Shown here: positions 8,962 through 36,120 of the stretch, one piece after another
Layout: every line of letters begins with the position of its first letter
Position numbering within the stretch: position 1 is the stretch's first letter
NCBI GenBank assembly: GCA_026395595.1
Contig: JAPLYL010000005.1
Location: 76,853 to 140,852, forward strand
Direction of reading: 5' to 3'
DNA length: 64,000 bases
Source of the DNA: Candidatus Parcubacteria bacterium
Lineage (GTDB): Bacteria; Patescibacteriota; Minisyncoccia; Phycocordibacterales; CAIJYI01
Translations under genes and position numbers: made by a program
Notes under the pieces: generated by a model
Told to the model about the DNA's origin: nothing
The model's database searches: none
What the model saw: only the letters and a program-made list of their open reading frames with translations

Positions 8962-10621
8962 ATGAAAATCAAGACAAAAATTTTACTTGCTTTTTCCTTT
9001 CTTCTGATTGTTGTTTTAGCAAGCGGCTATGTTTTTCTTGGAGAGATTCTTAAGGTTAAGGAGCTGATTTCAAAAAACGTTCCGCAAGATTTGCCGGTAT
9101 TTTTGGAAATGGAAAAAACGATAAACAACGGTCAAACAGCAGCCTTCTCGTTCATAATTATTGCTTGTTTTTTAATCATTTTCTTCGCCTTATTCTTTTT
9201 CTCTCTGTTCTCAAAATCCCTTAAAAGACTTCGCGATACCATAGAAAATGTTAAACACGGAAACTTAAGCGTTTGCTCCGTTCCTTTGAAAAATGACGAG
9301 ATAAGCGAGCTTTCAAAATCTTTCTGTGAAATGACTGATATCTTAAAAAACTCGCAAACAGAGGCGCAAAAAAAAGTTGAAGAACAAACGACGGAACTTT
9401 CTAAAAAAACTAAAGACCTTGATGACCAGAAAAACGCCATCTTGAATATCTTGGAAGATGTAGACAAAGAAAAGGAAAAAACAGAGGCCTTGGCAAAAGA
9501 TTTGAAAAAATTCCAACTGGCCGTAGAAAACGCGGCCGAAATGGTAGTCATTACCGACCCCGAAGGTATTTTAGTTTATGGAAACAAGGCCGTAAAAAGG
9601 ATTACCGGCTACGAGGTAAGCGATGCAATTGGAAAAAAAGCGGCTGCCTTCTGGAAAAGCCCCATGAAGAAAGAATACTATCAAGAAATGTGGCGCATTA
9701 TCAAAATCGAGAAAAAGACTTTCCACGGTCAATTGCAGAACAAAAGAAAGAACGGGGAGATATATGAAGCTGATATTTCTCTTTCACCAGTGCTTGACGA
9801 TAACGGAAACATTATTTTCTTCGTTGGCATTGAACGCGATATCACTAAAGAAAAGGAAGTAGACAGAGCAAAAACAGAATTCGTATCGCTTGCTTCGCAC
9901 CAGCTTCGTACCCCGCTTTCTTCTATCAATTGGTATACGGAAATGCTTCTCAGTGGCGAAGTCGGAGAATTAAATGACGGACAAAAAAATTATCTCAAAG
10001 AAGTGTATGCCAGCAGTCAGCGTATGGGAGACCTCGTCGGAACTCTTTTAAATGTATCACGTCTGGAACTTGGAACTTTTGATATAGACCCCTCAAAAGT
10101 AGACGTAAGCGCCATCTCAAAATCAGAATTAAACGAAATGAAACCGACGATTACAGAAAAAAAAGATCGTGATAAAAGAAACCTATGGAGAAAATGTCAC
10201 TGAATTCCAAGCGGATAAAAGATTACTAACCATAGTTCTTCAAAATCTTTTATCAAATGCCATAAAATACACCAACAACGAAGGAGAAGTGAGTATTGCC
10301 ATTCAGACGATTCCAGAAGGGTCTCTCCTTGACGGAAGAAAAATGACAGAAGAAAGTTTAGGGATAACCGTGGCCGATTCAGGAATCGGTGTTCCAAAAT
10401 CTCAACAGGACAAAATTTTTACCAAACTCTTCCGTGCCGACAATGCCGCTTCTTCCCGTACAGAAGGCACCGGTCTCGGATTATATATCGTTAAAGCCAT
10501 TGTTGAACAATCAGGAGGACAAGTGTGGTTCACTTCGGAAGAAAATATGGGAACAACCTTTTTCGTTTCCTTCCCTCGCACGGGAATGAAGAAAAAAGAA
10601 GGAACCAAATCTTTAGCCTAA
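8962..10621 (+). CDS. sensor histidine kinase (TM-HAMP-PAS-HisKA-HATPase_c), interrupted by a 1-nt frameshift in an A8 tract at 10157-10164
   Basis: HisKA H-box ASHQLRTPLSSINWY is in frame 1, ending at 10203. The HATPase_c region (NLLSNAIKYT...GTGLGLYIVK...) continues in frame 2 from about 10165. Alignment to the intact paralog 23492..25855 (EKKHIVIQE vs EKK-IVIKE) places the shift in the homopolymer. Confidence 0.75.
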
Positions 10622-12725: not shown

Positions 12726-15700
12726 TTACTTTTTAAGTGTTTTAACAAAGATACTCAGGTCTTGTATATTCACTTTTCCGTCTCCATTCAGGTCGTCTTT
12801 CGCTTTAAGAGTCGCGTTAGCGGACTGCCATCGGGAAACAAAAATGCTGTAATCTTGAATTCCTATTGTTCCGTCTCCGTTAAAGTCCATGTTTGGAGTG
12901 AAGATATTTACGACCGAGAATACTTCCTGAGGAGAGTAATCGCTTTTGAGTCCGGCAGGGCTGACTTGACGCGTACGAACCATATGGCTTCCAAAACCAA
13001 GGTCAAAGGTCGGAACAAGCGCTTTGTAAACTCCTTTACTGTCTACCGTTGCCGTAATAACCGTTGGCTGATTATCTATTTGAATTTCAATTTTATAGCC
13101 CGGTGCTCCCGCTCCCGTTATTCCGAGAACGTCGCCTTTTGTTACCGCCCCGCGAGCCAAACCAATGGTAGGAGAGAGCAAAATGCCATTAACATCAAGC
13201 TGTAATAAAGCGTTGGCTTGGTTGGCATCAAAAATCTTTACCTGTGTAGTGTTGTTATTTTTATCAGTTCCAACAATCCCATAAGAACGTGCGCCGCCGG
13301 TAAGTCCGCTAAATGAGAGAACGAAGTTTCCATTTGAAGTCGCAACTCCTTTTTTTGCTTGGAGAGAATCCGTTCCTCCGATAGCCACAACATTTAAGAC
13401 GGCTCCGGGAAATGCTTTACCCGTGAAGCGAACGCCGGAAACAGACGGGAGAGAGGCAATACCGGCAATGTTCACGATAGTCGGCGGTACAAATACGGCA
13501 TTAAAGATAAGTGTTTGCGTAGAGGAAACCCCTAATCCGGTTGACTGACTATCAATGAGCGAAAGCGTTATCGTTTCTGCAACCGTATCTCTGATCGTCA
13601 TCGTACCAACACCGTTTACCATAGTAACCACCCCGCCACCAGTAGCAGAACCGGAAGTGACGAGGGTAACATTGTGGTTGTAGTTTGCATCAACATTTCC
13701 ATTAACATCTTCCGCACGGATAGTCACTGTCGTAGGAAGATTAATCGTTCCATTAGAAACAGGTTGAATGGTAAAATGCGTTGCGGTAATTATCGCGAGG
13801 GTTACGGTTACTGAGTCAGCAGCATCTTGGATACCCGTCGTTCCATTGGCAATCGGAGTGCCGTCAGAAGCGGTGATAACCCACGTGCCAGGCGCCTCTT
13901 CGTAATACCAGAAGTTTGTCGTTGCAGACCCATCGGCAAAGGCAACAAGATCGGTCAGGAAACCTCCCGTGGCAACATCATAAAATTTTGAAGAGGTCGT
14001 TGCGGCGCTTGAATAGAGGTAAGCAGAAACGATTCCTGAAGTCACGAGATTATCAAAGGTATCTTTTCTGGTAAGTGTGTACTCAAGGCGAGTACCAGCG
14101 GTCATGTTTCCAGGATTATCAATGGTAAACTTTGAGATAGAAGAAGGGGCGACGGCAAAAGTTCTATTAGAGCCTGTCATACCAGGGGCAGTTCCGGCGA
14201 CCGTAACGGTTGCGGATCCGGCCAATTCATCGTAATACCAGAAACGAGCGATGGATTGCCCTTCAAGAATGTTTACCGAAGTGATAACACTTCCTCCTGA
14301 CACGGCGTCATAAAATCTTTTTACACCAGCAGAGGAAGAATCAAGAGTCACATTCGTAACACCGGTAGTAATAAGGTTTCCAAATTGATCTTTTCTAGTG
14401 ACCGTAAACCCGAGTCGCGCTCCCGCTGCGGTATCTCCCGGGTTATCAATGAAAAGTTGTTTTGCTTCTCCTGTGGAAAATATAGCATCAGCGGTTGAAG
14501 AAACATTGAGCCCGGTTGATTGAACGTCAGAGAGTGTTAAATGAACCGTCTCCGCATTATGGTCGGAAATCTGGATTGTACCAACTCCATCGGTAAGAGT
14601 TACCAACCCCGCTCCTGTGGCTGCCCCCGAAGTAAGAAGCATGACACTGCTGGTCGCGGTAGTATCAAGACTTCCCATATCATCCTGGGCTTGTATGGTA
14701 ATGGTTATCGGGCTATCAACCGTTCCTGATGACGGGGGGATAATAACAAACTTTGTAGCAACGATGGGGGCGGGACTGACATTTACGCTTGCCGTACCAT
14801 CAGTAACGCCCAAAGCGTCGGGACCGGAAATACTATCGGAAGCAGTGACCGTATAAAGCCCAGCGACTTCTTCGTAGTACCAGAAATGAGCCAAAGAAGA
14901 ACCATCACCAATAGAAACATTTGATATCGGATTCCCCAGTGTTGCCGAATCATAGAACTGTCTATTGTCCACTCCGAGAGCTCCCGCCGTCGTATAAAGG
15001 TATGCGGTGGTATTGCCGGAAGTAACAAGATTTCCGAATTGATCTTTTCGCGTAACCGTATATCCAAGTCGGGTCTTTGCCGTCATATCGCCAGCATTAT
15101 TGAGAGTAAAAGAACTTACCGGACCGGGAGTAACAGAAAGTACTTTGACGGCATCGCTGATACCAGCAGCGCCGTTTGCTGTTGGAGTTCCATCGGAAGC
15201 GGTAATGGTTACCGTTCCGGGAGCTTCGTCATAATACCAAAAGTTTGCGGTTTGCTGTCCAGAGAGAAGAGTAATTGAAGTAATCGGCGTGCCAGCTGTT
15301 TCTGCATCATAGAATTTTTTATTTGGGCTGACGGAAGAGCTGTAAAGATAGGCCGTAATCTCATCTTGAGAAGTGGAGTTTCCGTGCTGATCTTTACGAC
15401 TGATCGTATAACCGACACGGCTTCCTGCCGAGAGCGTTGTTGGCTCAGTGAGAGAAAATTGAGTGGTTGCTCCGCCAAGCCATTGAACCGTTGCAGAAGA
15501 ATCAACATTGAGTCCGGCTCCTTCGCTATCAGTAAGAGTAAGGTGTATAGATTCGGCTACCGTGTTGGAAAGATTTTTTGTTCCGACTCCATTAACGATA
15601 TTTACTAAGCCGTCGCCAGTAACTGAACCATCGGCATTAAGGGTTACATCTTCTTGAAAACTCGCATCAACATCGCCGTTCTCTTTTTGCGCTTGTACCG

Positions 15701-28886: not shown

Positions 28887-29170
28887 TGATATATTCTACC
28901 ACAAATTTATTCGGGCAAAAATAAAACCCCATCAAATGATGGAGTTTGGCTTGCTATCCTTGGTACGCCTGTTGTTTATCGCATGACTCTGCATCGCACA
29001 GGATTTTATCCTTCTCGGGTGCTTCCCGAGAATTGCACTATCACAAAAGAGCTTGATACTGCGGATACGGGTATTTTTTGTGCCCGGGCATCGCATTACC
29101 ATAATACACTTTTCACATAATATGTCAAGTATTCTCCAAATCTCACCGGCGTGTTATCATTATCAGCATA

Positions 29171-30897
29171 TGGAAAAAACAGACCAACTCTATAAAATAC
29201 GCCACTCGCTCGCCCATCTTTTGGCGATAGCCGCTTTGGAACACGATCCGAATGCCAAGCTCACCATCGGCCCCGTGGTAGATAACGGCTTCTATTACGA
29301 TATTGATTTCTCGGAAGGCAAAGCTCCGACTCCTGAAGACCTGAAAAAAATTCAGAAGACGATGAAGAAACTTGCCGGCCGGAAACTTCCCTTCACTAAA
29401 AGAACGCTGACCGATGACGAAGCCAAAAAAATGTTTGCCGACAATCCTTACAAAATGGAATTGATTGAAGGCATCATCAAAGAAGGAGAAAAAGCGACCG
29501 TCTATGATACGGGAGAATTCACCGATCTTTGCGAAGGCCCGCACGTGGAAAATACGGGAGAAATAGACACCGATGCTTTCAAAATAGATCACATCGCCGG
29601 CGCCTATTGGAGAGGAAACGAAAAGAACAAAATGCTCACGCGCATTTACGGCCTCGCCTTTGAGACTGCAAAAGATTTGGATGACTATCTCAAAATGATA
29701 GAAGAAGCAAAAAAGCGGGACCACCGAAAACTTGGAAAAGAACTTGACCTCTTCACGTTTTCAGACCTCGTCGGCCCGGGACTTCCGCTCTGGACTCCAA
29801 AAGGAACGGTACTCCGCGAAACGCTTGACGGTTTCGTCCGCGAACTTCGCGAAAAACACGGATACCAAAGAGTAACCATTCCCCACATCACCAAAAAAGC
29901 GCTGTACGAAACTTCCGGCCATTGGGCAAAATTCTCCGAAGAACTTTTCAAAATCACGACTCGCGAAGGAAAAGAATACGCGATGAAGCCAATGAACTGT
30001 CCGCACCACACGCAGATATTTGCGCGCACACAGTGGAGCTACCGTGATATGCCCCAGCGATATGCCGAAACAACGATGGTCTATCGCGATGAACAATCGG
30101 GAGAGCTCGGAGGTTTAACCCGCGTTCTTTCCATTACACAGGACGATGCTCACGTCTTCGCCCGCCCGAACCAGATCAAAGAAGAATTCTTCGCCATTTG
30201 GGATATCATTAATACCGTCTACGAAACATTCGGATTTGAACTGCGCGTCAGGCTCTCTTTCCACAACCCCGAAGCATTTGAGAAATATCTCGGTACGAAA
30301 GAAGTATGGGAAAAAGCAGAAAATGCCATTCGAGAGATAGCGAAGGAGAGAAATGCAAACTACTTTGAAGCTCCGGGAGAAGCCGCCATGTACGGCCCGA
30401 AACTGGACTTCATGGCGAAAGATTCGCTTGGACGCGAACATCAGGTGGCGACCATACAATTGGACATGAACCTCCCCGAGCGCTTTGACCTTTTCTGTAT
30501 CAATGAAAAAGGAGAAAAAGAAAGAGTGGTTATGATCCACTGCGCCATCATGGGTTCTATTGAACGATTCTCCGCAGTACTTTTAGAGCATCTCGCGGGA
30601 AACCTCCCCTTCCGTTTCTCTCCCGTTCAAGTCTATGTGCTTCCCATCACCGACGTGCATGAAGAGTATGCACGAGAAGTACTCGCAATGCTCAAAAATG
30701 CCGACATCCGAACGGAATTCCACAACGAATCCGAAACCCTCGGCAAAAAGATCCGAAACGGCAAACTCCAAAAAATCCCCTATCTCTTGGTCATCGGAGA
30801 TAAAGAAGTCGCCGACAAAACCGTCACGATAGAATCCCGAGGAGAAGAAACCAAAGGCGCCGTACCTCTCTCCGAACTTTTAGAAAACTTAAAATAG
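29171..30897 (+). CDS. thrS: threonine--tRNA ligase (lacks N-terminal TGS domain)
   Basis: HSLAHLL editing-domain motif. Class II aaRS motifs. C-terminal anticodon-binding domain. ATG at 29171 chosen; the upstream part of the track ORF has no similarity. Confidence 0.9.
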
Positions 30898-30904
30898 AAA
30901 CAAA

Positions 30905-30960
30905 AATCTCCCGATAAATATCGGGAGATTTTTTATTTATTGCCGGTTCGGGGTTGCACC
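30905..30960 (+). terminator. tandem hairpins after thrS
   Basis: ATCTCCCGATA-AAT-ATCGGGAGAT plus T-run, then CCGGTTCGGGGT-TGCA-CCCCGAACCG. Confidence 0.65.
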
Positions 30961-30979
30961 CCGAACCGAAACATTTGAA

Positions 30980-31621
30980 TTACACAGCCAAGTAAACCAA
31001 AGCTCTTCCTTTTAATCCGTTTGTTTTAATCTTCCCTTCTTTCACGAGTTGAGAAAGATATCGCTCTGCTGTTTTATCGGAAATGTGCAAAAGTTTTTCC
31101 ACTTCGTCGTTCGTAATTTTCCCTTTCTTTCCCATTTCAACCAAAATCCGATCAAGTTTCTTCCGTTTCCGAAATTGCAATTTCTCCCTCGCTTTTATAA
31201 GAAGCTCCTGCAGAAAATTTCGTTTGTTTTCCACTATCGGCAAAGGGATAATGACAGGAGGAACAACAACATCAGCAATAACTGTCGGAGCAACCGGCAC
31301 GTTATTTTGAATTTCAGAGACAGCAGGAACATCTCCGCTCAAACCCTCCGTCATTCCGGCCCCCGAGCCGGAATCCACGTTGTCTGACACAGCAACGGTT
31401 TCTACTGGCATCAAAATCGATTCTGCAGGAATAACCCCACCCGCAGGAGGAGTTTCCGCCACGACAACCGGTTCAACCACCGTCTGGATTTCTTCCCCCA
31501 CAGGAGCAACCGCACCCGCCTCACCCGGCGCTATTTCAACAGAAGTTTCAACCGTTTGAATAATCTCACCGTTCCCCGTTTCTTCTTCAATGATTTTATT
31601 ATTTTCAGTTTCTGTTGGCAT
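30980..31621 (-). CDS. hypothetical protein with Pro/Val/Glu-rich low-complexity N-region and C-terminal winged-HTH
   Basis: C-terminal ITNDEVEKLLHISDKTAERYLSQLVKEG resembles an HTH. Confidence 0.45.
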   Translation of the reverse strand: MPTETENNKIIEEETGNGEIIQTVETSVEIAPGEAGAVAPVGEEIQTVVEPVVVAETPPAGGVIPAESILMPVETVAVSDNVDSGSGAGMTEGLSGDVPAVSEIQNNVPVAPTVIADVVVPPVIIPLPIVENKRNFLQELLIKAREKLQFRKRKKLDRILVEMGKKGKITNDEVEKLLHISDKTAERYLSQLVKEGKIKTNGLKGRALVYLAV

Positions 31622-31652
31622 AGTTATATTTTAACGAAAACAATGGCAGATG

Positions 31653-32036
31653 TCACGATTTCCCGCTATTTTTTAAATAAGCCTTTATCCTTTCTTTATC
31701 TTCGTTTATTTTCTCGCCTTTAAAATACATTTCAAGGAATTCAATTTTGTTCTCGTTTTTGTAATAAACATAAATAACTCGTACTCCGCTAAAAACACCC
31801 CGTCCTTTCAAGGATTTGCAAGCAAACTTTTTTATTTTACAAACAACGATTTCCTCTGTGCAAAAATTCGGTATTGGGAAAATGGAGTGATTATCAATTT
31901 CTCGTACATGATACAGTTCAATCGCATTTTGTTTGACCATTTCCATGTCCTCAACAATACTCCTGAATTTTTTGAGGAGGCGTTTTACGTCCTTTTCAAA
32001 TTCTTCCGTGGTTTTATATTGCATCCTGTTCGTCAT
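31653..32036 (-). CDS. putative RelE/ParE-superfamily toxin (HigB/Gp49-like)
   Basis: C-terminal KGRGVFSGVRVIYVYYKNENKIEFLEMYFKGEK matches the RelE/ParE core. Its start overlaps the stop of the upstream XRE gene (ATGcaaTATAAa), typical TA coupling. Confidence 0.5.
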   Translation of the reverse strand: MTNRMQYKTTEEFEKDVKRLLKKFRSIVEDMEMVKQNAIELYHVREIDNHSIFPIPNFCTEEIVVCKIKKFACKSLKGRGVFSGVRVIYVYYKNENKIEFLEMYFKGEKINEDKERIKAYLKNSGKS

Positions 32037-32808
32037 ATTCGCGCACGGACGTTTCTTCCGTTCGGTAAAATACAGACTCATAATTGATCGGCCTTCCTTC
32101 CTCCGCAACAATCCACGGGATATCTTTATGGGAAAGATTTGAAAGTTCTGTGGCGGTTTTATCCGAAAGCCGTTCAAGAACTTCATCAATATGCTTTATC
32201 TCGCGCGCCGTAAAATCGGAAACATCGGCTCTTTTATGTGGGAGATATTTTGTTTGCTCATGTTCAAAATATTTGCTTTTGACTTGTTCAATAGCCCCTT
32301 CTTTTTCCATTTGAGTGACAATTTTTGCAAAAGCCACAGGCGTAGGCCCGTAATGGTTTTTTATATACAAAGCGCCAATAAGCTGTTCTTCATATTTTTC
32401 GTAATAGTCAAAATCAATAAAATACAGAAGTTTATACAAAACCGTCATGCCGACATTTGGTTTCCCTCCGACTTTTCCAAGGATATACAAAAGCGACTCT
32501 TTAAACTTTTCCACCTTTTCAGCAGGAACACTCACGCGCATTTCCGGCTCTTTTCCTCCGCCAGCCGGCGGATTCTTTTTTTCTTCTTTGAGAGTAACTT
32601 GTATCTCTTTATTGTCACCGCAAATAAGCCGTTCAAATGACATATCAAAAATACCGGCGAGTTTTTCCGCTTGAGAAAGCGTCAATTCACGCTCGCCTTT
32701 TTCAATGGCGACATATGAAGGGCGGGAAAGACCCAATTTTTCGGCAATAAATCCCTGCGAAAGACCGTTTTTCTTTCGCATTTTGTGTAAAATTGTTGGA
32801 TTGATCAT
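32014..32808 (-). CDS. XRE-family HTH fused to Panacea (DUF4065/SocA-like) domain, putative antitoxin
   Basis: N-terminal MRKKNGLSQGFIAEKLGLSRPSYVAIEKGER (HTH_3). C-terminal LYKLLYFIDFDYYEKYEEQLIGALYIKNHYGPTP matches the DUF4065 core. Confidence 0.6.
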   Translation of the reverse strand: MINPTILHKMRKKNGLSQGFIAEKLGLSRPSYVAIEKGERELTLSQAEKLAGIFDMSFERLICGDNKEIQVTLKEEKKNPPAGGGKEPEMRVSVPAEKVEKFKESLLYILGKVGGKPNVGMTVLYKLLYFIDFDYYEKYEEQLIGALYIKNHYGPTPVAFAKIVTQMEKEGAIEQVKSKYFEHEQTKYLPHKRADVSDFTAREIKHIDEVLERLSDKTATELSNLSHKDIPWIVAEEGRPINYESVFYRTEETSVREYDEQDAI

Positions 32809-32820
32809 ATATTGCAGTAT

Positions 32821-32853
32821 ACACTATGTACATATATTTTACAAGTATAGTGT
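32821..32853. promoter_or_regulatory. inverted repeat ACACTAT-N19-ATAGTGT upstream of the XRE gene (putative operator)
   Basis: Perfect 7-bp inverted repeat plus nested ATGTACAT palindrome, 13-45 nt upstream of the XRE start. Confidence 0.4.
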
Positions 32854-33263
32854 GAATAAGTTTGACATTTGCGAACGCATCGCGCTACTTTTAAATTATA
32901 CTTTCAATAAGCTTTCTCTCTTCAAGAGATTCGGCGAAAGAAATTTCGTTTTATTTTTCTCCATAAGAAATAAATACTCGTGATATTTTCCATCGCTGTT
33001 TATCCATTCATTCGTCCACCGCATATTTCCCATAACATTTTTTTTATAATCAATTTCAACCGCCTTGAGTAATTTTCCGGACTCATTGATGATATTATTC
33101 AGTTCTTGCTTTGTTGCTCTCCCGCCGGAACTGTATAGGCAAAGGGGGTCAGCAAATGGGGTCAGACCCATTATTTTTGTAACAAATGGGGTCAGGACTC
33201 TGTTTTCTCACTCCACCGTCCGCTTCGGCGTTAGCAGTGTTTGTTCAGTGCCTTCGACTGACT

Positions 33264-34175
33264 TTATATTTTCACTTTTTTAATTTCCGAAAGATATGCT
33301 AATTTTGTACAAATTCGCATGCTGCGCTCAATTGTTTTAGGAAGCGCGGTTTCAAGAACCCAAAATGACAAAACTACATAGATAACCGTAAGAAAGTTAT
33401 TTTCAAAAACTCTCCATAATGATCTAGAGTAGTAGTGCGTGTACACGAAATACCAATACAAAGAAAAATGCACGCTTGAATACACAATCACGCTCCATCG
33501 AGACACCTTAAGTCCGATAAAATCGATCTTCTTACTTTCTTTTAACGATTCGGATTCTTTTATTTTTTTCTCATCTATCGTTCCAAATTTTGTGCTAATG
33601 GTTTCTCCATTTCGTTTTTCTTCCTCAAAAATATAATTATATATGTATCTATTCCCCGAAATCGCAAACAGCACCCAGTGAAATATTTTTCCTATCCCAA
33701 GTAGAACATTTTTAGCAACCGTTCGCCAAAAATATATTTTTGTTCGCAAGAAGAATCCTCGTATCGGTCGCGTGTTTTTAATATGCTGTTCATAAATTTT
33801 TTTCAGAATGTCGTTACCGCTAATTTTTTTGTTTCCGCTATATAATTCTCCTTTGCATGGATCGTAAAAATATTCGTTCGGAAATTCTGCGTCTAACGGT
33901 TCGGATAATTTTTGCTCGGAACGCATTTGAACACCTCCTTCAACCCGTTTACCATACGATACGTGGATATTCAGTGGTTTTTTAATGATTGATGTGTCAG
34001 TCAGAATCGCTCGTGGAATGTATATCTGAAAAAGAGAAGTATATACAGCATCCTCTCCACCAATTTTTTTTTGAAAACTGAAACCGTTTTCTACACCCTC
34101 AAATTTCACAACATCAGTAAATCCGTGTTTTTCAGGTTCAAATTTCTTTATGAAAATATCATTTAAATTGTTCAT
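33264..34175 (-). CDS. hypothetical protein with soluble N-domain and C-terminal multi-TM region
   Basis: 303-aa ORF. No recognisable motif. Three hydrophobic helices in the C-terminal 120 aa. Confidence 0.45.
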   Translation of the reverse strand: MNNLNDIFIKKFEPEKHGFTDVVKFEGVENGFSFQKKIGGEDAVYTSLFQIYIPRAILTDTSIIKKPLNIHVSYGKRVEGGVQMRSEQKLSEPLDAEFPNEYFYDPCKGELYSGNKKISGNDILKKIYEQHIKNTRPIRGFFLRTKIYFWRTVAKNVLLGIGKIFHWVLFAISGNRYIYNYIFEEEKRNGETISTKFGTIDEKKIKESESLKESKKIDFIGLKVSRWSVIVYSSVHFSLYWYFVYTHYYSRSLWRVFENNFLTVIYVVLSFWVLETALPKTIERSMRICTKLAYLSEIKKVKI

Positions 34176-34465
34176 AAATTAGCTATGTGGATAAATATTT
34201 AGCAAGAATCCAGGACGATCACGATTATTTCAATAATTGTGTTTACAGAATAGCATATATTTTAAGCGGGGAAAACAGGACGACAACGAACGGACGATAA
34301 TTTGTGTGCTTCTCACTCTATTCCGATGTGGCCACAAGTCACTAAGTATATTTCTTCGCTTCGCTCGAAATCTACTAAGTGCTTGCCGACCCCGCCTCAC
34401 CTGCCCGTGCTCGGGCATGGCTCCGGCCTCACAAAACGCCGAAAAGCAAAGAAGTTTGCTTTTCT

Positions 34466-34498
34466 AAAAAATCTCCCGCACGGTTAGCGGGAGATTTT
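34466..34498. terminator. hairpin terminator downstream of tRNA-Glu
   Basis: AATCTCCCGC-ACGGTTA-GCGGGAGATT flanked by A6 and T6. Confidence 0.6.
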
Positions 34499-34508
34499 TT
34501 GCGTTTTG

Positions 34509-34580
34509 TGACCCTACAGGGAATCGAACCCTGGTTTTATCCGTGAGAGGGATATGTCCTAGCCGCTAGACGATAGGGCC
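34509..34580 (-). tRNA. tRNA-Glu (anticodon CUC)
   Basis: Cloverleaf derived by hand: acceptor GGCCCTA/TAGGGTC, D-arm GTC-TAGCGGCTAG-GAC, anticodon stem TATCC/GGATA with loop CTCTCAC (U33, CUC, A37), T-arm CAGGG-TTCGATT-CCCTG. Close to E. coli tRNA-Glu. No encoded CCA. Confidence 0.85.
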
Positions 34581-34800
34581 TTATGGCTACATGGTAGAAT
34601 ATAGCATGTTTTGGGGAAAAATCAAAAAATACGTAGTGACTGCTCACACTCCTTAGTAACGCAAAAATCTCTTTAGCGCCGCTACACCAAGGGCAGTCCT
34701 TTCCCTGTCATTCCGCTTCGCTCCATTCCTCCTTAAGGACTGCCCTTGTTTCCGCTTGTCGTGGTAAACGTAGATTCCGGCTCGCGGGCAGGAATGACGG

Positions 34801-36120
34801 TTACCTTACTTTCCACTCTTCGCTTTGTCGTACCAAGAGTTCCGCTTTCCTTTCCGGTTCGGACATTATTTCTTCTATGGTTTGTTCCATACGAATTTTA
34901 TTGGTGCCGGAGCCTTGGGAGCCTTTGACCAGAATAATATCGCCGTCGTCTATAATCTTTTCCAGATATTTTCCGGCTTCTCGGGAAGAATCAAATTGGT
35001 AGATATTGTTTTCATTCATTTTGGCATCAAGCGCGCCGTCCGCGATTCCCCGTCCGCGGATGCCGACCGTTACCAAAATATCACAGAATGAAGCGGTGAT
35101 GGCGCCAATCTTTTTGTGCTCTTCTTTGGAGTACTTGCCAAGTTCAAGCATATCGCCCAAGACCGCAATTTTCTTGCCATAGCATTTGATCTCTTCCAGT
35201 GTTCCGAGCGCTGCGGTTACCGCAACGGGAGAAGCGTTGTAGGAATCATCAATGATAAGCGTTTTTTTGATGCCGGGGATGATTCTCATTCTTCCGGGAG
35301 GCAAAGCGACTTCCGACAACCCTTCCGAGATTTCTACCAAATTTATTCCCGCCGACATGCCCAGAGCGGCGGTTGCGGCTGACGAGTACGCCATGTTATT
35401 TCCCAATGTTCCTTTGATTCTTACCGGCAGGCTTATTTCTCCCGCATCAAGACGGAAGATAACTCCATCGGGGGATTTCCTTTCCAAGTCATCTTCCTTA
35501 TATAAGACAGAAACATGAGAAGCCTTCACATCTGATTCCTCGCTAAAACCATAGGTTTTCGTTTTCCCTTTCCATTTTTCTTTGAGCGCGAGCACTTTCG
35601 GGTCGTCATGATTCAATATCAAAATTCCGTCTTTCTTCAGAGCGCCCACGAGCAAACTTTTTTCCGCAATAACCGCATCAGGAGAAGTGAAGTATTCCAC
35701 ATGCACGGGGACATCGGCAAAACGCGTAACAATGATGGCATCGGGATATATCCATTCCGCCGCTTCTTTCATATCGCCCGGTCGGTCAACGCCGATTTCC
35801 AAAACAAGCCATTCGGGGTATTCATGCTTTTTCAAAACGAGAAAAAGTCCAGCGAAGATATTTTTTGCCCAACCGATAGGATTATTCCACGCATTCTCGC
35901 AGCCGAGAATCGTCAGAGGAATGCCAATGTCAGAGTTGAAACTTTTCTCGCTTTTTCGCACGAAAAATTCGCGGGAAAGCACCGAGTAAGCGGCGTCTTT
36001 CGTAGAGGTCTTTCCGACGCTTCCAATCACCGCAACAATCTTCGGTTTATATTTTCTGAGCACGGCCGTTGCTTCCGCACGGAGAATAACGGCGATTATT
36101 TTTTTTGCAATATTTTTCAT
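34801..36120 (-). CDS. murF: UDP-N-acetylmuramoyl-tripeptide--D-alanyl-D-alanine ligase
   Basis: Mur ligase P-loop GSVGKTSTK. Central and C-terminal Mur ligase domains. Confidence 0.85.
   Translation of the reverse strand: MKNIAKKIIAVILRAEATAVLRKYKPKIVAVIGSVGKTSTKDAAYSVLSREFFVRKSEKSFNSDIGIPLTILGCENAWNNPIGWAKNIFAGLFLVLKKHEYPEWLVLEIGVDRPGDMKEAAEWIYPDAIIVTRFADVPVHVEYFTSPDAVIAEKSLLVGALKKDGILILNHDDPKVLALKEKWKGKTKTYGFSEESDVKASHVSVLYKEDDLERKSPDGVIFRLDAGEISLPVRIKGTLGNNMAYSSAATAALGMSAGINLVEISEGLSEVALPPGRMRIIPGIKKTLIIDDSYNASPVAVTAALGTLEEIKCYGKKIAVLGDMLELGKYSKEEHKKIGAITASFCDILVTVGIRGRGIADGALDAKMNENNIYQFDSSREAGKYLEKIIDDGDIILVKGSQGSGTNKIRMEQTIEEIMSEPERKAELLVRQSEEWKVR

Follow-up and report, generated by a model that had tools for sequence, protein, structure and literature searches.

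Between thrS and murF of a Candidatus Parcubacteria contig, the 64,000-nucleotide stretch analysed here (hereafter the window) carries a gene pair on the minus strand, panA and panT (31653-32867), which is with good probability a type II toxin-antitoxin (TA) cassette of the PanA/PanT class as defined by Kurata et al. 2022 (PNAS 119:e2102212119). The upstream gene, panA, encodes an XRE-type helix-turn-helix (HTH) domain fused to a Panacea (DUF4065) domain: The N-terminus of the deduced protein matched Pfam HTH_3 above the Pfam cut-off (E 5.7e-12, residues 7-60), and SocA_Panacea (PF13274) was recognised at residues 124-232 with E 6e-19 and 69.5 bits (cut-off 25.7); both matches confirm the domain fusion that had been proposed in a preliminary description of this DNA made from the sequence alone. 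The protein is composed of the XRE HTH (7-60), a linker, the Panacea domain (approximately 108-232) and a conserved C-terminal tail; the NCBIfam models added a weak SocA_antitoxin match (E 3.6e-4, 20 bits, far under the cut-off of 190) and a weak match to the C-terminal part of DarG. HTH domains have been documented in 343 PanAs (Kurata et al. 2022), and the Panacea domain acts, depending on the PanA, as direct neutraliser or as an accessory, possibly sensory, domain (NetFlax, PMC10440598).

The affiliation of the panT product emerged from its predicted fold. The AlphaFold2 (AF2) model, built on 34 sequences, was confident (predicted local distance difference test, pLDDT, 85.4; predicted template modelling score, pTM, 0.81) and contained the elements E2-5, H7-19, H23-39, E48-50, E59-67, E81-88, E93-101 and H110-120 (E, strand; H, helix), i.e. 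a strand, two helices, four strands and a C-terminal helix (beta-alpha-alpha-beta4-alpha), which in the model corresponds to the RelE order. Archaeal RelE was the best match of this model in the Protein Data Bank (PDB) according to Foldseek (1wmi_A, E 6e-4, TM-score by target 0.67), followed by HigB2 (E 2e-3) and then by HP0892 of H. pylori, YafQ, YoeB and E. coli RelE. As modeled, panT is shown to encode a protein of the RelE/ParE superfamily (BECR fold) with archaeal RelE and Vibrio cholerae HigB2 as its nearest matches. The RelE/ParE-like toxin announced in the preliminary description was thus found again at the level of the fold, whereas no Pfam or NCBIfam model matched it: RelE/ParE-type Pfam models (e.g. 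PF06296, PF05016, PF05973) recognised none of 34 PanT homologues even at E <= 5, the PHROGs gave no informative family, and a single-sequence PDB search with PanT returned noise only. The family itself comprises 469 database clusters, typically 60-65% identical, and three of the homologues carry the JGI name RelE.

The start of panT is embedded in panA; its ATG sits within the final panA codons (ATGCAATATAA). From the ATG at 32024 (the call of NCBI) the protein has 123 residues and the genes overlap by 11 nt; from the upstream ATG at 32036 it has 127 residues with a 23-nt overlap, so that the overlap of the Panacea gene's stop with the start of the RelE-like open reading frame (ORF), as described before, is present with either start. 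In a scan for the toxin family with one genome per GTDB species, PanT relatives were encoded in at least 445 species genomes; the best 80 loci of the 445 genomes were examined for their context. A Panacea domain was located directly upstream of panT on the same strand in 79 of the 80 loci, the exception being a contig on which no sequence precedes panT, and an HTH was found in all upstream Panacea genes with enough upstream DNA; the panT ATG was positioned 8-26 nt inside panA in 81 of 85 loci, in constant relative frame. Approximately 58 of the 80 best loci are named Patescibacteria (Saccharibacteria, Paceibacterota, Gracilibacteria, Microgenomates, Dojkabacteria and others), and 14 are assigned by name to other phyla, in many cases with contigs of short length.

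The surroundings of the cassette vary, e.g. NADH dehydrogenase genes in locus L001, a UvrD/AddB-like helicase in L002-L005 and argS-like genes in L014 and L015, and there was no conserved third gene downstream of panT in 85 loci. The closest copy (L001) has 87% DNA identity to the window, with homology confined to 32868-31667, i.e. from the first operator-like site (see below) to 14 nt short of the panT stop. Both proteins are 50-75% identical across the family, and the ratios of non-synonymous to synonymous substitution rates (dN/dS) in comparison with the L001 copy amount to 0.06 for panA and 0.09 for panT. As judged from these sequence comparisons, both genes are shown to be under strong purifying selection and to move as a self-contained 1.2-kb unit with its own promoter region. 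The plasmid and phage collections contained no PanT match, and one of 2.9 million IMG/VR contigs carries the panA-panT pair. A more far-reaching view, to which we assign a low probability, is that the cassette represents an autonomous selfish or defence module of great success, able to pass by itself from one class of Patescibacteria to another and possibly with a preference for neighbouring genes for proteins with a disordered N-terminus and winged HTH; if true, panAT would rank among the principal means of growth arrest or defence in these minimal episymbionts.

Promoter region, proposed mode of action and alternative functions

The sigma-70-like promoter of panA consists of the -35 element TTGTAA (32844-32839), a 17-nt spacer and the -10 element TATACT (32821-32816), with a scan score of 9 out of 12; the panA ATG is located 7 nt past the -10 and no Shine-Dalgarno sequence is present. 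Six nucleotides are the commonest -10-to-ATG distance of the family (25 of 71 promoters). This close spacing of -10 and ATG suggests that the panA mRNA is leaderless. A comparable arrangement was observed for the adjacent gene of a 213-aa protein, which is preceded by the promoter-like site GTGACA-17-TAAAAT (31656-31628, score 10 out of 12): In both the panA promoter (32816-32844) and this site (31628-31656), the -10 lies 6-7 nt before the ATG and a Shine-Dalgarno sequence is missing; leaderless transcripts may be common in the genome.

The motif TGTMAA-N5-TNNACA was present in 27 of 71 unique homologous promoters versus 3 of 1400 control segments. The window contains two such sites of the form 6-N5-6, TGTCAAACTTATTCACA (32867-32851) and TGTAAAATATATGTACA (32843-32827, overlapping the -35), which appear to be better operator candidates for an XRE-type dimer than the 7-bp inverted repeat ACACTAT-N19-ATAGTGT (arms 32853-32847 and 32827-32821) that had been put forward in the preliminary description as the likely autoregulatory operator. 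The repeat is indeed present in the promoter, but a 7-bp repeat of this kind occurs by chance in 13-16% of comparable 87-nt segments and was found in 0 of 70 homologous promoters; in L001, the two corresponding arms form a direct, not an inverted, repeat. For annotation, the operator is probably not the obvious inverted repeat.

According to the proposed mechanism, panA and panT would be transcribed into a single leaderless bicistronic mRNA that starts approximately 7 nt past the -10 TATACT, and the translation of panT would be coupled to the termination of panA. PanA dimers bound to the pair of TGTMAA-N5-TNNACA sites flanking and overlapping the -35 would repress the operon, and PanT would be kept inactive by directly bound PanA; once PanA is depleted or triggered, free PanT would act in the ribosomal A site and cleave mRNA with the result that growth stops.

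The same parts may alternatively serve in phage defence by abortive infection instead of addiction or a response to stress, with PanA mainly sensing a phage product and freeing or activating PanT in response; this is compatible with the TA assignment and is regarded as a tentative possibility. Such a role would be in line with the sensory function of Panacea and the connection between TA systems and defence proposed by the NetFlax authors (PMC10440598), with the location of the cassette in a variable region and next to the remains of a methylase gene (see below), as such regions often gather defence genes, and with its wide distribution among Patescibacteria, which were reported to be without many classical defence systems (PMC12455944). 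However, the PADLOC defence models matched neither protein beyond generic HTH models, and no consistent defence context was revealed around the 85 loci.

Regarding the target of PanT, HigB2 has the active-site residues R51, R64, Y82 and K84 and, in addition, a basic, Gly-rich beta2-beta3 loop (PMC5416850); in mRNases of this type the active-site Arg is located on beta3 and the Tyr and Lys on beta4, together with basic residues on beta2 and in the beta2-beta3 loop, and R64, Y82 and K84 were demonstrated by mutation to be required for activity (Hadzi et al., PMC5416850). In a profile alignment that is weak and covers the C-terminal half only, R82, Y100 and K102 of PanT align with R64, Y82 and K84 of HigB2; R82, Y100, K102, K63, K66, G74 and G76 are invariant among the 34 sequences of the PanT family, and a Gly/Lys-rich beta2-beta3 loop is common to PanT (KSLKGRGVFSG) and HigB2 (ASKGKGKRGGS). 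On the basis of the fold matches, the aligned Arg/Tyr/Lys residues and the shared basic loop we infer that PanT would be a RelE/HigB2-type ribonuclease acting on mRNA (mRNase) and not a gyrase poison of the ParE type. The latter, improbable function would be conceivable in view of RelE and ParE sharing one fold with members that differ in target, of ParE structures appearing lower in the Foldseek list (6x0a, E 0.18) and of the ParE-like PanTs in the PanAT catalogue; yet the best fold and profile matches of PanT are all mRNases (aRelE, HigB2, HP0892, YafQ, YoeB), and it is the Arg/Tyr/Lys set of HigB2 together with the basic Gly-rich loop that is invariant in its family.

Several points weigh against the interpretation as a TA cassette. 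The curated hidden Markov models (HMMs) of Pfam, NCBIfam and PADLOC do not recognise PanT, the window protein being without RelE/ParE-type match at E <= 1; the Foldseek TM-scores are moderate (0.5-0.67), and the sole sequence-level link to RelE/HigB2 is the match of the PanT family profile to HigB-2 chains at E 0.04. The operator-like motif is present in 38% of the homologous promoters only, with the pattern used, and in some PanAs neutralisation is not carried out by the Panacea domain (NetFlax, PMC10440598); furthermore, the members of the corresponding catalogue cluster, T14 (see below), are all marked 'notest' (Kurata et al. 2022). The last-mentioned entry and the eight PanTs that were non-toxic in E. 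coli when tested by Kurata et al. would also agree with an XRE regulator and a RelE-fold partner that has lost its toxic activity, i.e. with no TA system at all, but the invariant putative catalytic residues, the strong purifying selection on both genes, their obligate pairing and overlap and a patchy, context-independent distribution typical of TA modules make this very improbable.

Comparison with known toxin-antitoxin systems

In Dataset S1 of Kurata et al. 2022, cluster T14 (pT15) is characterised by an HTH-PanA, the antitoxin gene in first position and HHpred matches to HigB-2 (99.7%), RelE, YoeB and YafQ; a gene overlap of -11 nt is listed for Ca. Saccharimonas aalborgensis (WP_015641600.1, WP_128569608.1) and for a TM7 genome, and the other entries show -8 or -17 nt. 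The window pair has the HTH-PanA architecture, the gene order, the 11-nt overlap and the presence in Saccharibacteria in common with T14, to which it was assigned by architecture; the family is abundant in Saccharibacteria, and its overlaps cover the range of those in T14. The pair is a genuine member of a catalogued TA class. The combination of XRE-Panacea protein and RelE-like partner, which the preliminary description had presented as a compact version of such systems, is not new but already listed as T14 (Kurata et al. 2022). The T14 catalogue is derived from RefSeq genomes; the breadth of the family over the Patescibacteria (445 species genomes) and the present Parcubacteria member are not shown there.

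V. cholerae HigB2/HigA2 (PDB 5ja8, 5ja9, 8a0x), with a RelE-like, ribosome-dependent mRNase as toxin, provided the best profile match and the second-best fold match for PanT, and HigA2, like PanA, also bears an HTH for autoregulation. In contrast to the window, the toxin gene is the first one in higBA2, and HigA2 neutralises via a disordered N-terminal segment (PMC5416850), whereas PanA carries a globular Panacea domain; the sequence identity between PanT and HigB2 is only 13-20%. The aRelE-aRelB pair of P. horikoshii (1wmi) and E. coli RelBE correspond to the window in their antitoxin-then-toxin order and overlapping genes, but RelB, a small antitoxin of the ribbon-helix-helix or helical kind, possesses neither a Panacea nor an XRE domain, and PanT is 30-35 residues longer than RelE and is missed by the RelE-family HMMs. 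The Panacea domain is common to PanA and SocA of Caulobacter SocAB, the founding SocA/Panacea protein. SocA serves as an adaptor by which SocB is handed over to ClpXP and degraded, and the replication clamp is blocked by SocB; the window system differs in the RelE fold of the partner and in the HTH of PanA. The MqsR:PanA system of Bacillus fungorum (PMC10440598) combines an HTH-containing PanA, in which the HTH serves dimerisation and autoregulation, with a ribosome-independent RNase toxin. In the B. fungorum protein it is an extra zinc-binding domain that neutralises, HTH-Panacea alone being insufficient (PMC10440598); since the window PanA is without such a domain, either its Panacea domain or the conserved C-terminal tail would have to contact PanT.

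The genomes of Patescibacteria are approximately 1 Mb in size and thought to be stripped of most defence and stress modules; a conserved, repeatedly transferred TA cassette would offer a handle on growth arrest or phage resistance in these episymbionts, and panAT would be a natural first test of the HTH-PanA/HigB2-like class. The PanT family is missed by every curated HMM; in annotations, RelE/HigB2-like is the label it should carry. The current understanding of toxin-antitoxin biology is unchanged by these results.

The variable interval between tRNA-Glu and thrS

All genes between thrS (29170-30897, plus strand) and murF (34801-36120, minus strand) are located on the minus strand (Table 1); the positions of the minus-strand ORFs and of the tRNA-Glu had been given correctly in the preliminary description. 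The panT and 303-aa proteins are identical to the NCBI entries NTZ13_03675 and NTZ13_03690, respectively, of a Candidatus Parcubacteria metagenome-assembled genome.

Table 1. Features located between thrS and murF of the window.
Feature	Position	Strand	Basis
Terminator hairpin, bidirectional, separating thrS from the 213-aa gene	30902-30933	.	Terminator scan
213-aa protein	30980-31621	-	ORF list, Pfam HTH_24
panT, RelE/HigB2-like toxin candidate	31653-32024 or 31653-32036	-	123/127-aa ORF
panA, antitoxin and autorepressor candidate, 264 aa	32014-32808	-	Pfam HTH_3 and SocA_Panacea
panA promoter and candidate operators	32816-32867	-	Promoter scan, motif conservation
91-aa ORF, methylase remnant	ORF 32896-33171; remnant 32956-33204	-	PADLOC, tblastn
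303-aa predicted membrane protein	33264-34175	-	Hydrophobic segments
Conserved non-coding segment	34293-34445	-	blastn versus relatives
Terminator hairpin after tRNA-Glu	34465-34501	.	Terminator scan
tRNA-Glu(CTC), downstream of murF	34508-34580	-	ARAGORN; Rfam tRNA 60.5 bits

The guanine-plus-cytosine (GC) content is 46-48% in the flanking genes (thrS, murF and the penicillin-binding protein (PBP) gene) versus 33-41% in the ORFs of panT (33%), the 303-aa protein (34%), the 91-aa ORF (37%) and panA (41%). The relatives that were found by their MurF have retained the order mraZ-rsmH-PBP-murF-tRNA-Glu(CTC), with the tRNA after murF in L166-L169; thrS is also kept in L166 and L167 (MurF 77%, ThrS 80-83% identical). 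In the latter two loci, an element of approximately 5.5 kb begins inside the 3' end of the tRNA-Glu (L166 9481-15030) and encodes hypothetical proteins besides a large serine recombinase (Resolvase, Recombinase, Zn_ribbon_recom) and a Rep-like protein (REP_ORF2-G2P); there is an overlap between the recombinase gene and the rebuilt end of tRNA-Glu. The far border in L166 is a degenerate copy of the tRNA 3' end (…GGTTCCAATTCC…GGGTCAC, approximately 14983-15013), and past the element, L166 and L167 continue with this tRNA 3' copy, then with a conserved segment that corresponds to window 34293-34435, and finally with an EamA gene and thrS. In L168 and L169, the conserved segment directly adjoins the tRNA; a cupin gene, a gene for 344 aa and EamA come next.

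None of the window's four genes, i.e. panAT cassette, 303-aa gene and methylase fragment, is present in L166-L169, so that the gene set does not belong to the core genome of all relatives, and none of the genes of the L166 element is present in the window. Since the relatives keep murF-tRNA-Glu and thrS but carry other cargo, the tRNA-Glu-to-thrS interval is, by comparison of these loci, variable; in this lineage, the tRNA serves as an insertion site. Among 80 metagenome loci, the gene order downstream of thrS differed even where ThrS was 89% identical, and none of these loci showed a tRNA. For annotation purposes, the interval is a local hot spot for foreign DNA.

The non-coding segment 34293-34445 (approximately 150 nt), which comes after the tRNA-Glu terminator in the window as in relatives, gave blastn matches of 74-75% identity to L166/L167 and L168/L169 only (L166 15052-15194; L168 9565-9700). 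Its consensus folds into a long hairpin of 41 pairs, six of them with compensatory changes among three distinct sequences, and there was no Rfam match at E <= 1; the segment may represent an undescribed small RNA linked to tRNA-Glu and marks the tRNA-proximal edge of the variable region. As this segment precedes the cargo and the 213-aa gene is probably resident (see below), the variable cargo would extend from approximately 31622 to 34290.

A patchwork of separate acquisitions and decay, comprising the cassette, the methylase fragment and the 303-aa gene, is considered more likely than one decayed element, since the homologies of the cassette and of the 303-aa gene to other loci each end at their own borders. 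The competing explanation, that the low-GC stretch 31622-34290 is a single decayed element which had integrated at tRNA-Glu and has since lost its integrase and attachment repeats, appears unlikely: It could account for the closeness to the tRNA 3' end, the low GC throughout, the truncated methylase inside and the occurrence of an element with serine recombinase and Rep in exactly this tRNA in L166 and L167; however, no integrase or recombinase gene is located between thrS and murF, in agreement with the preliminary description, and the direct repeat of the tRNA 3' end (34508-34530) that was proposed there as a border of the islet is absent from 30850-34850. Moreover, the segment syntenic with respect to the tRNA lies between tRNA and cargo, which argues that the insertion point was not the tRNA itself, and the genes of the L166 element are missing, as mentioned above. 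The former suggestion of an integrated-element remnant agrees with the variable region, its atypical GC and the absence of its genes from relatives; the missing tRNA repeat, the location of the cargo past the conserved segment and the patchwork composition speak against it.

Repeats were also observed in or near the interval. The hairpins 30902-30933 and 34465-34501, which bracket the thrS-to-tRNA-Glu interval, have an identical 14-bp stem (AAAAATCTCCCG/CGGGAGATTTTT) with different loops, and the 11-mer AAAATCTCCCG is found within the 64 kb only in these two hairpins; the relatives possess unrelated hairpins at both positions. An interpretation as islet borders was rejected, as the hairpin on the tRNA side separates the tRNA from the segment whose synteny is kept in relatives; the shared stem possibly results from gene conversion or past recombination. 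A 34-nt, internally palindromic sequence, CCGTCATTCCGGCCCCCGAGCCGGAATCCACGTT, is present at 31348-31381 and, in inverted orientation with 91% match, at 34767-34800; the first copy is in frame within the region for the disordered part of the 213-aa protein (DSGSGAGMTEG) and the second one directly follows the murF stop. Its interpretation as a dispersed element was dismissed, with no more copies in the window or in 171 loci. The 82-nt stretch 34678-34759, located upstream of tRNA-Glu, includes an inverted repeat of 14 bp (CAAGGGCAGTCCTT/AAGGACTGCCCTTG) and is 95% identical to L168/L169 3533-3614, i.e. at a different position between a CAP-domain gene and mraZ, which suggests a small dispersed repeat.

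Additional genes of the interval

The genes accompanying the cassette had been addressed as orphan hypotheticals in the preliminary description, which does not hold for two of them: The 303-aa protein belongs to a family, and the 91-aa ORF, not named there, is a methylase remnant. The latter ORF matched positions 321-382 (of 383) of the PADLOC model MTase_II with E 7.5e-19 and had no Pfam match. An intact homologue of 376 aa is encoded on an IMG/VR viral contig (L172) and was identified as a D12-class N6-adenine methyltransferase (PF02086, E 1.4e-18); tblastn of this protein against the window recovered residues 293-375 only, with 57% identity, and the catalytic part (PF02086, DPPY motif) was not found in the whole 64-kb window. 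Neither the phage collection nor the PDB contained a match to the fragment. As only residues 293-375 of the homologue survive, 32956-33204 is, judged by this alignment, the dead remnant of a D12-class (Dam-like) N6-adenine DNA methyltransferase gene, namely its last 83 codons. At the broken 5' edge of the remnant (33140-33205, minus strand), CTGACCCCATTTG occurs twice exactly, along with a degenerate third copy, GCTGACCCCCTTTGC (translation VLTPF / GLTPF / ADPLC); these repeats look like a slippage or recombination scar.

The 303-aa protein possesses two strongly hydrophobic segments (153-175 and 256-282), in agreement with its earlier designation as a membrane hypothetical. An exhaustive HMMER search revealed a family of 256 representative clusters, nearly all of approximately 300 aa, and no Pfam, NCBIfam, PADLOC or PHROG family was matched. 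The AF2 model (pLDDT 86.8) comprises a beta-rich N-terminal half and long hydrophobic helices; because this confident model has no PDB or BFVD neighbour at E < 0.05, the fold of the family may be undescribed. The word-index search provided a single homologue on a 2.4-kb contig (L171), with homology ending at the ORF borders; in its neighbourhood there, a HicB-like and a Fur-like ORF were noted, along with one for a secreted-looking protein of 170 aa.

The N-terminal half of the 213-aa protein is disordered and rich in Val, Glu and Pro, and a winged HTH (HTH_24, E 1.2e-4) is located at its C-terminus. An HTH protein with a long Pro/Val-rich region had been correctly described before, but its inclusion in the islet is doubtful: By its flank-like GC content of 45% and the presence of a counterpart near thrS in L089 (81% identical in the C-terminal part), the gene is probably resident rather than cargo. 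Genes for proteins with an acidic, Pro-rich N-terminus (MPE/MPD/MPT) and winged HTH adjoin panAT in the window, L062 and L048; they are located 5-32 nt downstream of the cassette in the window (30980-31621) and L062 (4404-5177) and 259 nt upstream in L048 (1101-1616). As the winged-HTH family was otherwise found once in approximately 1 Mb of other DNA examined, this adjacency looks non-random; a role as conserved third gene was rejected, since it adjoins the cassette in few loci only. The L001 locus contains a 55-aa ORF (10360-10527) with an N-terminus like that of the winged-HTH family.

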